Shown here: in pieces, positions 6,309 through 23,934 of the stretch
Layout: each line of letters opens with the position of its first letter
Position numbering within the stretch: position 1 is the stretch's first letter
The notes under the pieces: model-generated
The model's input: only the letters and a program-made list of their open reading frames with translations
Database searches by the model: none
Told to the model about the DNA's origin: nothing
Position numbers and translations under genes: made by a program
Source of the DNA: a virus
Virus record (IMG/VR): IMGVR_UViG_3300030108_003783
Span: 69,731-133,730 of that record
Length of the DNA: 64,000 bases
Direction: 5' to 3' (one strand)

Positions 6309-6309
6309 A

Positions 6310-6341
6310 TTTGGATAAGTCGTAAAAATTTATTATATTAA
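6310..6341 (+). promoter_or_regulatory. Bacteroidota-type -33/-7 promoter TTTG-GATAWGTC-N12-TATATT(T/A)A
   Basis: 13 copies with exact 20-nt spacing: 6310, 7394, 8438, 8780, 13457, 15585(TTTT), 15867, 18290, 19107, 20944(TTTC), 22236, 25560, 44684. Confidence 0.8.
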
Positions 6342-6345
6342 TATT

Positions 6346-8379: not shown

Positions 8380-8383
8380 CCTA

Positions 8384-8428
8384 TGACAAATTGTCATTAA
8401 AAAACTTTGAAAAATGGACAAATTGTCA
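8384..8428. promoter_or_regulatory. Pair of palindromic operators TGACAAATTGTCA
   Basis: Copies at 8384 and 8416; further pairs at 15541/15563 and 18225/18268. Confidence 0.7.
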
Positions 8429-8496
8429 CCTAAATTATTTGGATATGTCAAATATTTTTCTTATATTTATATATAAATAATAAAACATTAAACACT

Positions 8497-10731: not shown

Positions 10732-11076
10732 ATGAAAATAACAATTTGGATACATAAATCAGAAGCAATTTCTGGTAATATAACAAAATATCATACTCAT
10801 GGCCTTCCGCAAACTTCTAATTGGCCAGATTATGTTCAAGTGCAAATCTCTCAAGACGAATTTGCAAGGCTAGAAGATAACAATGTAGAATATGTTTCAG
10901 AAGAAGAAATGGATAAATTAGAAGCTAAATATGGTTCTGAAGAAATTCCTATGATTCACGAAAGAAATCCTGATACTGGAGATGTACGTTCTAGGCCAGC
11001 TTCATGGTATGTTGATCAATATAATAGAAATAGAGATCCAAAAGACCATATAACTCATAAAAGTCAAATAAAATGA
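10732..11076 (+). CDS. Hypothetical protein
   Basis: ORF packing. Confidence 0.65.
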   Translation: MKITIWIHKSEAISGNITKYHTHGLPQTSNWPDYVQVQISQDEFARLEDNNVEYVSEEEMDKLEAKYGSEEIPMIHERNPDTGDVRSRPASWYVDQYNRNRDPKDHITHKSQIK

Positions 11077-11432
11077 ATATAGAAAGAAAACAATATAAGC
11101 TTAGAGAATATAAAAAATTCTTAAACAGAAAGTTTAAAGGTATAGAAACTAAAATGGCACCAAATGGTGGTTTTTACGTTTCAGATTCAAAAGGTAATAA
11201 TTTAATAGGTAATAAATACCCAGACTTGGCTATATCACCAGACGTTTACACAGCATATAAAAATGCTTACATAGTAGAACATTGGAATAGAATGGAAGCA
11301 AGACAAGTCAAAGGTATTAGAAAAGATATTCAAAACAATACAGTTCAAGGTGGAGAAGGATTAGCAAAAGCTATACATGAATACTTTGAGGATGAATATG
11401 AAATGTATGACGAAGAAAATTTAAATGAGTAG
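11073..11432 (+). CDS. Hypothetical protein
   Basis: ORF packing. Confidence 0.65.
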   Translation: MNIERKQYKLREYKKFLNRKFKGIETKMAPNGGFYVSDSKGNNLIGNKYPDLAISPDVYTAYKNAYIVEHWNRMEARQVKGIRKDIQNNTVQGGEGLAKAIHEYFEDEYEMYDEENLNE

Positions 11433-12042
11433 TATACAAGGACCGAAAGGTAAAATAACAAAGCATCATCAAAGAGGTAGACCTTTAAGGTATTTACTTC
11501 AATCTGAAGTGGAAGAAGCTATGGAGAATACTAAATCTAATCTTGCTGCTTCTAAATGGTGTAAAGTTTCATTTACTACTTATAAAAAATATGCTTCAAA
11601 TTATTACGATGAAAATGGTGTTTCATTATATGAAAAACATAAAAATCAAACTGGTAGAGGTATATCACAGTTCAGAGAAGGACACCATGGTAATCAATAT
11701 CCATTAGAAGATATTTGCGAAGGAAAACATCCAGAATATCCTACATGGAAACTATTAAAAAGATTAATAAAGCATAAAGTAAAAGATGAATGCTGTGAAA
11801 TTTGTGGTTTTGCTGAAAAACGTAAAGGTGATGGTAAAGTTCCATTGATACTTGGTTTTGACGACAGAAACAAATTAAACAGGAAACTTAAAAATTTAAT
11901 AGTAATGTGCTACAATTGTTTCTTCATTCATCAGGGTAAATTAGCTGGAGGTAAGAATGCTCCATACCCACGCAAAAACAGCGCATTATTAAAAAAAGAT
12001 AATCTTGATGAGCAAGATTACGAAATGTTAAGAAATCTATAA
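11425..12042 (+). CDS. HNH-like Zn-binding protein (degenerate active site)
   Basis: CEICG..LILGFDDRNKLN..NLIVMCYNC. Confidence 0.55.
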   Translation: MSSIQGPKGKITKHHQRGRPLRYLLQSEVEEAMENTKSNLAASKWCKVSFTTYKKYASNYYDENGVSLYEKHKNQTGRGISQFREGHHGNQYPLEDICEGKHPEYPTWKLLKRLIKHKVKDECCEICGFAEKRKGDGKVPLILGFDDRNKLNRKLKNLIVMCYNCFFIHQGKLAGGKNAPYPRKNSALLKKDNLDEQDYEMLRNL

Positions 12043-12269
12043 TGAAAAGGGAATTAGTTATGTATTATTTAGGAAGAGTAGAATTCATCACGCTAATAGA
12101 CACAAAAGGTGGTGGCACAAAAGAAAAGAAAACAAGAAGACAATATTTAGTAAATGCAATGACTTGCACAGAAGCTGAAGCAAAGATTGTAGAGCAATTG
12201 AAAGATTCAGTTGAAGATTACGAAATAAAAGGTGTTCAACAGTCAAAAATTATTGAAGTTTTTGAATAA
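12042..12269 (+). CDS. DUF4494-like protein
   Basis: QYLVNAMTCTEAEAKI resembles the Bacteroidota YLVDAxSxTEAE motif. Confidence 0.55.
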   Translation: MKRELVMYYLGRVEFITLIDTKGGGTKEKKTRRQYLVNAMTCTEAEAKIVEQLKDSVEDYEIKGVQQSKIIEVFE

Positions 12270-12387
12270 AAACTGTTTGAACTTGATATTTATCTACGAG
12301 GATCCGGGGAAAAGATAATACTAACCGGACCTTAAATTAAGTATACTGGATGGGTATTTAATTTTTAAAACATTTTAGGAGTTTATT

Positions 12388-12804
12388 ATGACAAGATTAC
12401 AATTTCACGAGCGGTTGTTTCCAACCGACCTTCTGTTCAAAAATTTCTTTGAAACAGATTCACACTTTCAATCTCATGCTGAAATAAAACCGAACTATCC
12501 TTGCGATTTGTTCACAGACGATGACGGTTTACATATTGAGATTGCTGCAGTTGGTATTAATAAAAAGGATATCAAAATAGAAACAGCAGAAAATCAAATT
12601 AAGGTTATTTATGATAAGACTGGTGATGACCCATCAGTCGATTATATTCATAGAGGTATTGCTAGAAGATCTTTTAACTTAGGGTGGAAGATATCTCCAA
12701 AATTTAACTTGAATAGAGTTAAAGCTGATATGAATAATGGGTTACTTTCAATCTTCATTCCAATTGCTGATGAAGCTAAACCGAAAGCAATTACAATAGG
12801 ATAA
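12388..12804 (+). CDS. Small heat-shock protein Hsp20/IbpA-like
   Basis: YIHRGIARRSF, ADMNNGLLSIFIP..KPKAITI. Confidence 0.9.
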   Translation: MTRLQFHERLFPTDLLFKNFFETDSHFQSHAEIKPNYPCDLFTDDDGLHIEIAAVGINKKDIKIETAENQIKVIYDKTGDDPSVDYIHRGIARRSFNLGWKISPKFNLNRVKADMNNGLLSIFIPIADEAKPKAITIG

Positions 12805-12855
12805 TAATATCCGCAATACCCATCCGGTATTAGTTATATAAAAAAGGAAATAGTT

Positions 12856-13026
12856 ATGGAATTAACAGCAATAATAATTTTTGGAATAGCATGTTTTGCA
12901 TTAGGAATGTATTTTACTACACAAATTTCTGAATGGATAAGCGACAGAACACAGCACAAAAAATTTATAAAGAATTTAGAGAATTATGGCAAAGAAAAGA
13001 ACACTAGACGAACTAAGACAAAGTAA
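12856..13026 (+). CDS. Small single-TM protein (56 aa)
   Basis: Manual translation MELTAIIIFGIACFALG..; AAGGA upstream. Confidence 0.5.
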   Translation: MELTAIIIFGIACFALGMYFTTQISEWISDRTQHKKFIKNLENYGKEKNTRRTKTK

Positions 13027-13465
13027 AACTTTCGGTTATAAAGCTCCAATCTCCAAAAGACAAAAGAAACTAGATGAGACATATATTAAAATGGCTGAAA
13101 TCTGGTCAAAACAATCTCATTGCGAAAGAGCTCAAGTTGGAGCATTAATAGTTAAAGACAAAATGATAATCTCAGACGGATATAATGGAATGCCATCTGG
13201 CTTTAAAAACACTTGTGAAATGGGAGATTCAACAAGATGGGAAGTTTTACATGCAGAAGCAAATGCAATTTTAAAATGTGCTAAACATGGTAAATCTTGC
13301 GATGGAGCTACATTATATTTAACTATGAGTCCATGTAGAGATTGTAGTAAATTAATACATCAAGCAGGCATTATTCGAGTTGTATACAAAGATGAATATA
13401 GAGAAAGAGCTGGTATTGATTTTTTACAATCTGCTGGCGTAATTGTTGATAAAATATTTGGATAA
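12986..13465 (+). CDS. dCMP deaminase
   Basis: GYNGMPSG, HAEANA, SPCRDC. Confidence 0.92.
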   Translation: MAKKRTLDELRQSKTFGYKAPISKRQKKLDETYIKMAEIWSKQSHCERAQVGALIVKDKMIISDGYNGMPSGFKNTCEMGDSTRWEVLHAEANAILKCAKHGKSCDGATLYLTMSPCRDCSKLIHQAGIIRVVYKDEYRERAGIDFLQSAGVIVDKIFG

Positions 13466-13507
13466 GTCGCAAAATTTTCTTATATTTATATTATATAAGA
13501 GGAAAAC

Positions 13508-13669
13508 ATGATAACGTATTTATTAATAGGTATATTGCTAATGTGGATAATAGAGATAGGCTCACCTTATCTTTGGACCATTCAAGAAAGAATCGGTATA
13601 ATTTTACTTTGGCCTTTTGCTGCAATGATTATGCTAAACGCACTTTGGAAGAGATTTAATGATGAATGA
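13508..13669 (+). CDS. Small membrane protein (53 aa)
   Basis: Manual translation MITYLLIG..LLWPFAA; follows promoter 13457. Confidence 0.5.
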   Translation: MITYLLIGILLMWIIEIGSPYLWTIQERIGIILLWPFAAMIMLNALWKRFNDE

Positions 13670-13793
13670 AATAGATAAACTAAAGATAAAAATAGTTAAT
13701 TCTAAATTAGCAAATAAACCTTTTGGATACATCAGAATGTTACAACAAAAATTAGATAAACTAATAAGGGCCAAAAAAGATGGGACATTATGA
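13662..13793 (+). CDS. Small hypothetical protein (43 aa)
   Basis: Manual translation; overlaps both neighbours. Confidence 0.4.
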   Translation: MNEIDKLKIKIVNSKLANKPFGYIRMLQQKLDKLIRAKKDGTL

Positions 13794-13977
13794 AGATTTA
13801 TTTTACGAAATTACAGAATCTTTAAATAATTTAGGATTGAGACAACAATTCGATGATCAACTAGAAAAGATGAGATATCAAGATAAACATCGTTATAAAG
13901 AAACCCGAGATAAATGGGATTATGCATATAATAAAGTTATAAAAAAATATGAAAACAAAAGAAATAAAAAAATTTAA
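13780..13977 (+). CDS. Hypothetical protein
   Basis: ORF packing. Confidence 0.6.
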   Translation: MGHYEDLFYEITESLNNLGLRQQFDDQLEKMRYQDKHRYKETRDKWDYAYNKVIKKYENKRNKKI

Positions 13978-14341
13978 AAGACGCAGAGCACTAGTCTGCA
14001 AGATGGTAAGAAAATCTGTATCCAATCCAGAATACTTTAGATATGAAGTAACAGTTGGAGAATTAGATGGAACAATTACTAAGCACCCAGTTTATGGGAA
14101 AGATATGCAAGACGCAATATCAAGGCTTATCAATAAAGAAAGAACCGAAAAGATAGAAAAGAAAATGGAAAAGAATCCATTAATATTCTTTTTAATATGG
14201 ATGCTCGTAATGGCTATTCCAGTTATATGGCACGGAGATCTGACTTATACTCCTTGGTTCATATTATACATGTTTGCAACTTTTACTGCAATGTTTGCAT
14301 TTGCAGGATGGTGGCAAAGTTATTTAGAAAAAGGAAAATAA
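13949..14341 (+). CDS. Membrane protein with two C-terminal TM helices
   Basis: Hydropathy. Confidence 0.65.
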   Translation: MKTKEIKKFKRRRALVCKMVRKSVSNPEYFRYEVTVGELDGTITKHPVYGKDMQDAISRLINKERTEKIEKKMEKNPLIFFLIWMLVMAIPVIWHGDLTYTPWFILYMFATFTAMFAFAGWWQSYLEKGK

Positions 14342-14575
14342 ATGAAAATATCAACAGCATTAGCAGTATTAGGATTAGCAATATTCTTCATACTAATATT
14401 AGTATTAGAAATCATGTCAGCACCTACAGCTGAAGACAATGAAGATGGAACAGAAAAAATACCACCACTAACAAGAGAACAAGAAAGATATCAATTTGCA
14501 TCAAAGATGTGTTTTTATGGTATATTAGGTATGGTATTCACAATAGTAATAACAGCATTAGAATCTTGCAATTAA
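14342..14575 (+). CDS. Two-TM membrane protein
   Basis: Hydropathy. Confidence 0.6.
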   Translation: MKISTALAVLGLAIFFILILVLEIMSAPTAEDNEDGTEKIPPLTREQERYQFASKMCFYGILGMVFTIVITALESCN

Positions 14576-15334: not shown

Positions 15335-15641
15335 GTAATGGCGTTTATTATATAAGAGTATAGCTATATATGAATATACAAAGGCTGAAAATAATTTGCT
15401 AAATAATCTAAAAATGCTGGGCCGTGTGTCCCGAGAATAGCTTTTTTTTGCCGGCTAACACAGTTATTTTAGGCCCAAATAGGCTAAGGCCATACGGGAT
15501 ACCAAGGTCATACACACGCTTATATGAGCTAATACACCGATGCCAAATTGTCATAGAGGTTTTGACAAATTGTCACCTAAAAAATTTTTTTATGTCGAAA
15601 ATTTTTCTTATATTTATATATAAATTAAAACATTCATCACT

Positions 15642-19500: not shown

Positions 19501-19574
19501 GGACCGGTAGCTCAGCTGGATAGAGCATTAGCCTTCTAAGCTAACGGTCGAAGGTTCGAATCCTTCCCGGTTCA
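19501..19574 (+). tRNA. tRNA-Arg(UCU)
   Basis: Cloverleaf GGACCGG/CCGGTTC, D arm GCTC/GAGC, anticodon arm TTAGC-CTTCTAA-GCTAA, T arm GAAGG-TTCGAAT-CCTTC; CCA not encoded. Confidence 0.95.
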
Positions 19575-19598
19575 CTAACTTAAAATAAAATTACTACT

Positions 19599-22224: not shown

Positions 22225-22433
22225 TTACTAAAACATTTGGATAAGTCGAAAAAATTTATTATATTTAGTTAAAAACTTAAAATAAGTTATTACTCAATAA
22301 TCTTAACTTAATATAACTTATTAACTAATATAAAATATAACTAATATAATATTATTACAAATAGGAATTGTATATAATATTTAAGGAGGTAAGCCGAAAA
22401 TCCTTTTTAGAGTAGGCACATTTTAAAAATTAT

Positions 22434-22997: not shown

Positions 22998-23283
22998 AGA
23001 AACTGTTATTACTATTATTAGTGAATGGGGAAAAGAGTTCACTGGTAATAGTACAACAGTAGATAAATATGATAAAGTACTAAGTTTAATATCTTGCAAT
23101 ATTAAGTTATCTTCTGATAATAGAAATTTCGATTTAAAAGAAATGAGAATAGATAAATCTACTGTATTTAATTATAAGATGAAGTATTCAACTACTGGTA
23201 ATATAAGTAAAAATGATATTTCAGAATTAAATACTATTTTTCAGAAACATAAGAAAATTGCAAAATTGCTTACTAGTAACTGA
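22972..23283 (+). CDS. Hypothetical protein
   Basis: ATG start MANQSNN preferred. Confidence 0.6.
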   Translation: MANQSNNLKETVITIISEWGKEFTGNSTTVDKYDKVLSLISCNIKLSSDNRNFDLKEMRIDKSTVFNYKMKYSTTGNISKNDISELNTIFQKHKKIAKLLTSN

Positions 23284-23291
23284 TATTTATA

Positions 23292-23516
23292 ATTGAATCG
23301 CTAGTACTTATATTAGCTGCATTTATGGACCCGGGTTCGACTCCCGGCATCTCCACTAAAAGATTTACACGATATGGGGATGATTGGTTTTGACAGAATG
23401 ATAAGGGTATAAGGATGATTCACTGCAACAACTGGCAAACAAGTTGAATATGCAATGGCTGCCTAATTAGGTACCCAGAGCAAACGGTTAACAGGGACCA
23501 CGTCGTAAAAGTCCCG
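23292..23516 (+). ncRNA. ssrA: Circularly permuted (two-piece) tmRNA; acceptor piece ~23292-23355, coding piece from 23376, tag (A)GKQVEYAMAA*
   Basis: T arm CCGGG-TTCGACT-CCCGG plus CATCTCC-A precede GGGGATG (G3.U70 pair); TGGTTTTGAC D region; tag ORF 23434-23466; outer ends approximate. Confidence 0.9.
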
Positions 23517-23550
23517 GAGGTTAGAGGTAATAATATAAAGGAGTAATACT

Positions 23551-23934
23551 ATGACACAAGATGAATGGAACAGTGCTGAAGAATATTTAGAAGGTTACAT
23601 GTTAGATTTAACATACGAAATAGTTACTCAAAAAAGAAAATTAAAAGATCTAATAAATTCTGATGAAGAAGTAATATTATCTTACGACCCATTTTTAGTT
23701 GGAGAGATAGATCAAGTTTGGTTAATAGAAGATTTGATAGATTGGTATGTTGGCGAAGAGGAATACGAAAAATGCGCTGAGCTTTTAAAGTTGAAAATAA
23801 AAGTAGAAAAGGGTATTGTAGATTTAAGTAATATTATATACTTAAGAGATGAAGATTTTATAACTGCTCAAGAAGACAATGCAATAAAAGAGCTACTAAG
23901 AAATTTATTAGATAATAACTATAATAAAAATTAG
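23551..23934 (+). CDS. Acidic UVR-like motif protein
   Basis: WYVGEEEYEKCAELLKLK; AAGGAG RBS. Confidence 0.6.
   Translation: MTQDEWNSAEEYLEGYMLDLTYEIVTQKRKLKDLINSDEEVILSYDPFLVGEIDQVWLIEDLIDWYVGEEEYEKCAELLKLKIKVEKGIVDLSNIIYLRDEDFITAQEDNAIKELLRNLLDNNYNKN

Follow-up and report, generated by a model that had tools for sequence, protein, structure and literature searches.

Organisation of the hsp20 locus

The window, i.e. the whole stretch of 64,000 nucleotides that was analysed, derived from the 133.7-kb IMG/VR record of an uncultured marine phage (31% G+C, estimated to be 77% complete) whose ORFs lay nearly all on the + strand. An hsp20 coding sequence of 138 aa (12388-12804, +; Pfam HSP20, E 2.7e-11) was followed by an ORF of 56 aa with a hydrophobic N-terminus (12856-13026, +). 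Upstream, ORF 12042-12269 (75 aa) matched Pfam DUF4494 in its C-terminal half only (profile positions 73-138 of 139), and ORFs 11073-11432 and 11425-12042, the latter Cys-rich, had no family match supplying the rest of DUF4494. The idea that a nuclease had been inserted into a split DUF4494 gene was rejected, since the upstream ORFs gave no DUF4494 or HNH match. Elsewhere in the window, positions 19501-19575 encoded a tRNA-Arg (anticodon TCT), and 22383-22418 matched the DUF805b RNA motif with 40.5 bits, its gathering score being 35.6.

A DNA search with positions 12200-12900 against cultured phages gave no match. The closest cultured hsp20 proteins were 27-34% identical. For DNA ligase, identity to cultured phages was ≤32%, none of them being a close relative, and no cultured member of the clade was found. 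Contigs with a near-identical hsp20 coding sequence were present in two metatranscriptome runs of one study. The RNA contigs of the locus, possibly including DNA, corresponded to 12001-12234 (X17), 12580-12741 (X18) and 12427-12590 (X19); within hsp20 they covered 12427-12741 only and were uninformative on transcript ends, strand and the arms described below.

A promoter-like motif ahead of hsp20

A promoter-like motif, TTGATATTTATC, lay at 12283-12294 (+) and belonged to a class without the upstream TTTGGATAAGTC element, probably late. Its core, ATATTTAT, was found in 49 copies on the + strand of the 133.7-kb record, 33 of them intergenic, and in 15 copies on the - strand, one of them intergenic, the intergenic share of the record being 6.7%. 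It also lay 5' of tail genes, baseplate genes and the tmRNA gene. This bias in strand and position, together with the kinds of genes that follow, indicated that ATATTTAT marks a phage promoter, probably a late one, in agreement with the late promoter that an earlier note on this DNA had placed ahead of the leader. Judged from the motif, transcription would start near 12298. The hsp20 leader was 94 nt, the usual leader behind this motif being 11-60 nt.

A second promoter-like class in the record consisted of TTTGGATAAGTC, a spacer of ~10 nt and TTATATT, and was often preceded by short palindromes (e.g. in the intergenic sites 6309-6345, 8380-8496 and 15555-15641 of the window). A 16-nt palindrome, TATTTATATATAAATA, occurred in at least five copies (8464, 8806, 15611, 18316 and 20970 of the window). 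The tmRNA gene was of the permuted, two-piece type (23263-23557, ARAGORN; tag peptide GKQVEYAMAA; Rfam tmRNA_permuted at 23308-23466, 72.9 bits), with ATATTTAT at 23283 just within the ARAGORN span and 25 nt 5' of the Rfam match. A permuted tmRNA on the phage may hint at its host group.

A long-range helix around hsp20 in the window

The earlier note had described the hsp20 message as closed by a 16-bp panhandle between its two untranslated regions. The two arms lay exactly where it had put them, the 5' arm at 12343-12358 (+) and the 3' arm at 12815-12830 (+), starting 11 nt after the stop codon, and formed 16 contiguous pairs. Fifteen of these were Watson-Crick, and T12347 opposite G12826 was, as had been claimed, the only other. 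Within the window family the 5' arm was invariant except at 12347 (U or C), and 12826 was G, or A in two members (L102 and L103). The stop codon itself was covered by a small hairpin (12799-12812, +; GGATA, 4-nt loop, TATCC), the stem of which was kept, with differing loops, in six of the eight family members and was absent from L102 and L103.

Between the 3' arm and the ORF starting at 12856 neither a T-run nor a promoter motif was seen, which suggests read-through past the 3' arm in this genome. Terminator-like sites were called neither between the hsp20 stop codon and the 3' arm nor at the 3' arm.

Taken alone, the window helix was at most weakly beyond chance and not significant against shuffles: nine of 100 shuffles gave at least two matches at ≤3 mismatches, and its score was 37 as compared with a maximum of 38 among 30 shuffles of the 600-nt downstream flank. 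Across the whole 133.7-kb record the hsp20 arms were the sole non-palindromic inverted repeat joining one intergenic region to another with a score of at least 30. Since the helix of the window by itself barely exceeded chance, its reality rests on the comparative evidence.

Recurrence of the helix in relatives

With the protein and an hsp20 alignment as queries, 419 relatives were found in IMG/VR and 414 in metagenome contigs, with identities of 44-88%; 94 and 80 loci, respectively, were retrieved. From the IMG/VR set of 89 loci three were dropped (short flank or no start codon), and the helix was present in all 86 that were analysed. Both flanks were available for 68 of the 80 metagenome loci; 60 of these scored ≥24 within 45 nt of the stop codon, against 0/68 in the reversed-flank control. 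In six of the other eight the 3' arm was found at +222 to +251 behind an extra gene, and the remaining two had 10-bp helices. Helix length across relatives was 10-26 bp, with a median uninterrupted core of 16 bp. Cognate flanks scored a median of 34, as opposed to a median of 17 and a maximum of 28 for reversed flanks. The 95th percentile of a non-cognate control was also 34 and was exceeded by 27 of 63 cognate scores; this control was blunt because relatives share arms, and the reversed-flank control was the cleaner one. In the minimum-energy folds of full-length lineage transcripts the helix was included in 20 of 20, with mean pair probabilities of 0.81-1.00.

The 5' arm was positioned 37-95 nt before the ATG, and a gap of 0-23 nt separated the stop codon of the last enclosed gene from the start of the 3' arm. 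Of 64 distinct loci, 47 had the promoter motif, at a median of 13 nt from motif end to 5' arm, so that the 5' arm would lie at or near the RNA 5' end in most lineages; the window family was an exception, its motif ending 49-50 nt before the arm. What followed the 3' arm depended on the lineage. Some, the window among them (25 nt), had the next gene 4-25 nt further on, others a T-run with a new promoter, and L015 a canonical terminator. Neighbouring genes also varied by lineage, with at least 10 families on each side of the module.

The extra gene of L013 encoded a DUF2061 protein (E 3.5e-23), and its stop codon lay 5 nt before the 3' arm. A DUF2061 membrane-protein gene after hsp20, with both genes enclosed, was seen in L009, L012-L014, L036-L038, L108 and L121, and further in L125, L137, L160 and L174. 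Thus, as it encloses either hsp20 or hsp20 plus DUF2061, the helix closes a module and not hsp20 as such. When the arms of all lineages were inspected by eye, the 5' arm nearly always carried a G-run (GGG or AGG, Shine-Dalgarno-like) and the 3' arm the matching C-run, not the reverse.

Four cultured cyanophages and pelagiphages with hsp20 (P-HM2, S-RSM4, MA10 and HTVC115P) had no gene-spanning helix, and three of these four carried an ordinary local hairpin plus T-run behind the gene. A search of genome contigs with the hsp20 alignment gave no cellular relative, and a metagenome scan gave no transcript-sized contigs.

Covariation of the arms and strand of selection

The arm sequences fell into ~19 unrelated families. 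Counted once per edge on a spanning forest within these families, 400 pairs were unchanged, 19 had changed on both sides in a compensatory way, 17 had moved between Watson-Crick and G.U by a change on one side, and 11 had been disrupted by a one-sided change. Since a MAFFT alignment over 45 lineages brought only ~15 into register at the arms, pairs were formally counted in a subfamily of 16 sequences. Here 89.9% of cells were paired, compared with 31-48% for slid controls, both sides had changed at 6 of 18 pairs, and the covariation value was 0.273 against 0.162, with none of 500 shuffles as high. At the wobble position of the window the family had C-G (1), U.G (5) and U-A (2).

Among 65 distinct arm pairs (147 loci) there were 892 Watson-Crick, 24 G.U, 6 A.C and 12 other pairs (binomial p 7e-4, counted per distinct arm pair and not per independent event), under a scoring that penalised G.T and A.C equally. 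The excess of G.U over A.C (24 vs 6) indicated a constraint on the sense RNA, as a constraint at the level of DNA would not favour one strand. The arms were conserved and covarying, with wobble favoured on the sense strand, which agrees with the selection at the RNA level proposed in the earlier note. Its picture of a looped-out coding sequence also stood, the arms covarying around hsp20; no terminator-like site preceded the 3' arm. As judged by these sequence comparisons, the helix is shown to be a real structure under selection for pairing, the selection acting on the sense-strand RNA, and this RNA reading is settled as far as sequence can settle it. Both arms would be carried by one RNA molecule.

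In DNA run X4, contig ends were recorded at 12357 (two records) and 12837 (one record), at the outer edges of both arms. These ends may reflect strain variation beside conserved arms.

Leader structures and the Shine-Dalgarno region

A leader hairpin was located at the predicted 5' end (12298-12333, +), with an outer stem of GAGG (12298-12301) and CCTT (12330-12333) and an inner stem of TCCGG (12303-12307) and CCGGA (12325-12329). By RNAalifold of eight family members the outer stem GAGG/CCUY was kept (G.U in five, G-C in three). The TCCGG/CCGGA hairpin of the earlier note was present in the window but proved to be window-specific, its inner pairs being broken in some of the eight. An AU-rich local hairpin holding the 5' arm (12334-12364, +; 12334-12340 with 12358-12364, and ATAC 12343-12346 with GTAT 12354-12357) had been put forward as a competitor of the long-range helix. 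Within the window family it was real, but in other lineages it recurred only weakly (mean score 12.0 vs 10.4 for shuffles; p ≤0.05 at 9 of 58 loci). In the full-length fold of the window the long-range helix beat this hairpin, with a mean pair probability of 0.95. The hairpin may hold the 5' arm until its 3' partner has been made.

The Shine-Dalgarno sequence of hsp20, AGGAG (12377-12381, +), was outside the helix, the 5' arm ending 19 nt before it. RNAalifold paired the Shine-Dalgarno region AUUUUAGGAG (12372-12381) with CUCCAAAAU (12695-12703) inside the hsp20 coding sequence through nine pairs and one bulge, and in L102/L103 a leader U-to-A change was matched by a synonymous A-to-U change in the coding sequence, a single compensatory event. 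This AUUUUAGGAG/CUCCAAAAU pairing is a possible second long-range contact, which would mask the ribosome-binding site. In lineages lacking a Shine-Dalgarno sequence (L045, L061, L062, L066, L069, L074, L083, L086 and L088), a hairpin of the form GCTGATCTTCGGACAGC, with variable loop letters, made up a second conserved leader element ~20-45 nt before the ATG.

Discussion

The reading that we favour, and to which we give about even chances of being correct, is that the helix works like the 5'/3'-UTR interaction of Bacillus subtilis hbs mRNA and controls ribonuclease access and message ends. As described in the available part of the report of Braun, Durand and Condon (2017, PMC5737220), a 14-nt perfect complementarity between the two UTRs of hbs restricts cleavage of the leader by RNase Y and slows decay, with compensatory mutants as proof. 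The phage transcript would start at the promoter motif at 12283-12294, and its leader segment 12343-12358 would pair with 12815-12830 behind the stop codon, closing the whole hsp20 message into one domain or, in some relatives, closing hsp20 and the DUF2061 gene together. With the leader held in duplex, the entry points of host ribonucleases would be controlled; this control of access would determine both the ends of the message and how long it persists, and the hsp20 product may be needed in large amounts late in infection. We thus infer an effect on stability or processing. The hbs-like reading is preferred because a leader duplexed with the tail of its message fits every lineage context. 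A simple protection of the 5' end would be a less suitable description for the window, where the 5' arm lies ~45 nt from the predicted 5' end and a hairpin already stands there, so that the helix would be unneeded for it. Since the next gene of the window follows at 25 nt with no terminator, the 3' arm may also be internal to a longer transcript.

So far as the available text on hbs goes, the two systems share several features: a leader segment is joined to a segment 3' of the stop codon (hbs being a short, highly expressed gene), the Shine-Dalgarno sequence stays outside the pairing in both, and in L015, as in hbs, the 3' arm comes just before a canonical terminator. They differ in that the phage element occurs in a DNA phage, linked to a single gene family, is known from natural covariation over ~150 loci whereas hbs, in the same text, is known from mutants, and in the window has a next gene and no terminator behind its 3' arm. 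A second comparison is with icaR of Staphylococcus aureus, in which, according to Ruiz de los Mozos et al. (2013, PMC3868564), initiation is blocked through pairing of a 3' motif with the Shine-Dalgarno region; the phage 5' arm lies at least 19 nt upstream of the Shine-Dalgarno sequence, and the modelled accessibility of the latter was hardly altered. Rfam 15 gave no match in or around 12298-12830, and none at E up to 1 across 11000-14500.

The earlier note had also considered excision by RNase III, end protection, circularisation and a translation switch. The main rival, which we regard as possible but rather unlikely, is that host RNase III might cut the helix and so release the hsp20 message, its ends paired, from a longer late transcript. 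Such a separation of cistrons would make sense in the window and in several families, where the next gene follows the 3' arm at 4-25 nt with no terminator. When flanks were included, the duplex reached a median of 25 pairs (≥20 in 56 of 61 loci). Far more pairing than from shuffled flanks was gained in the CTGCGGG family (e.g. -41.5 vs -30.6 kcal/mol), and some families extended to ~30 imperfect pairs, far exceeding shuffled flanks, which the window family did not. According to the available part of the icaR report, an RNase III substrate is created there by 5'/3'-UTR pairing (PMC3868564). Against this role, the uninterrupted core was short (median 16 bp, minimum 10). Over all loci, shuffled AT-rich flanks nearly matched the energy of the natural ones (-29.0 vs -31.9 kcal/mol), in the window family the flanks added nothing (-25.8 vs -27.7 kcal/mol), and no RNase III gene of the phage was found in the 133.7-kb record, 77% complete.

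RNase III cuts the stems of pre-rRNA and the early mRNAs of T7, and an RNase III stem has about two turns of double-stranded RNA. As in pre-rRNA, the flanks of a functional RNA pair in the phage and loop it out, and cleavage would leave protected paired ends; unlike the stems of pre-rRNA and T7 early mRNAs, the hsp20 cores are shorter, with their median of 16 bp. The RNase III sites of T7 are moreover local hairpins between genes and not gene-spanning helices.

A control of translation, whether by closed-loop re-initiation, by masking of the downstream initiation region or by a switch or thermometer for hsp20 itself, is improbable in our estimation. The 3' arm, 0-23 nt behind the stop codon, would be reachable by a terminating ribosome in most lineages, and several families have their next start codon within the arm or 4-12 nt beyond it. 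Masking cannot be the general role, as the next gene is ~40 nt away wherever the arm is followed by a T-run plus a new promoter. In the window the predicted accessibility of the Shine-Dalgarno sequence fell from 0.47 to 0.28 when the 3' arm was present, but this sequence was never part of the helix and in 14 of 16 lineages the difference with and without the 3' arm was ≤0.05, the window and L045 being the exceptions; the modelling thus speaks against the full-length translation switch of the earlier note. Bacterial small heat-shock genes are often under RNA thermometers, and the phage resembles these in having a structured leader before such a gene. Known thermometers (ROSE, fourU and the cyanobacterial hsp17 leader) are local, weak hairpins over the Shine-Dalgarno sequence or the AUG, whereas the phage helix is a long-range one that does not cover the Shine-Dalgarno sequence, and its predicted stability extends to 60 C. 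In the models of all 16 lineages its pair probability stayed at ≥0.99 between 10 and 60 C, which speaks against a temperature-dependent switch, and no Rfam thermometer was matched. Circularisation of the message was likewise unsupported, with no RNA ligase or RtcB found in the 133.7-kb record (77% complete).

A more speculative proposal, which we also consider improbable, is that the helix would be a checkpoint at the end of translation, a gene-spanning clamp abutted by the ribosome that terminates on hsp20, with either a closed loop or a split terminator as the outcome. In the first case the ribosome would be handed back to the adjacent leader, giving a bacterial closed loop. In the second, for lineages with a U-tract, the 5' end of the nascent RNA would serve as the upstream half of a terminator and the message as its loop. 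If true, either outcome would represent a way of closing an mRNA that we have not found described for a DNA phage.

Very improbable, in our view, is a split intrinsic terminator taken as a reading by itself, in which the long-range helix and a U-tract would stop transcription with the whole message as the loop; we know of no precedent for it. Although 24 of 64 distinct loci had at least five T in the 8 nt behind the helix, and 12 of the 17 loci with an early-type promoter behind the arm had such a T-run, the other 40 loci lacked one and the window tail TAGTTATA had four T of eight. The run in the main T-run family overlaps the upstream part of the next promoter and is able to pair with the A-rich terminus of the coding sequence, and L015 has its own canonical terminator behind the arm.

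An element acting as DNA (an invertible segment, terminal repeats of a mobile hsp20 cassette or a cruciform site) would suit inverted repeats of 10-26 bp that are ~470 bp apart, within the size range of invertons, and the differing neighbours (≥10 families on each side) would be expected of a mobile module, but we hold it to be extremely improbable: the sense-strand bias of G.U over A.C (24 vs 6) and the one-sided changes through wobble pairs are unexpected for DNA, the promoter lies outside the inverted repeat, the orientation of hsp20 was that of its neighbours in 61 of 62 cases upstream and 62 of 68 downstream (the exceptions being short, doubtful ORFs), run X4 listed no joint at the arms and no strand-change joint, and no serine or tyrosine recombinase (Resolvase, Phage_integrase) was matched in the 133.7-kb record, 77% complete.

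A literature search found no report of a helix around phage hsp20 or of such a helix in a DNA phage. The 5'/3'-UTR pairings of hbs (PMC5737220) and icaR (PMC3868564) were each, according to the available parts of these reports, worked out in one species. Across marine and freshwater phages the helix has been kept although its arms are of ~19 unrelated sequences, and it always surrounds hsp20; such natural conservation is strong evidence that end-to-end closure of a message is a selected design. The module is compact, ~560 nt of promoter, arm, gene and arm, and could be moved into a laboratory host; it could also serve as a natural insulator part for gene expression. Its conservation raises the question of why the small heat-shock gene of a phage in particular needs a helix that spans the gene.
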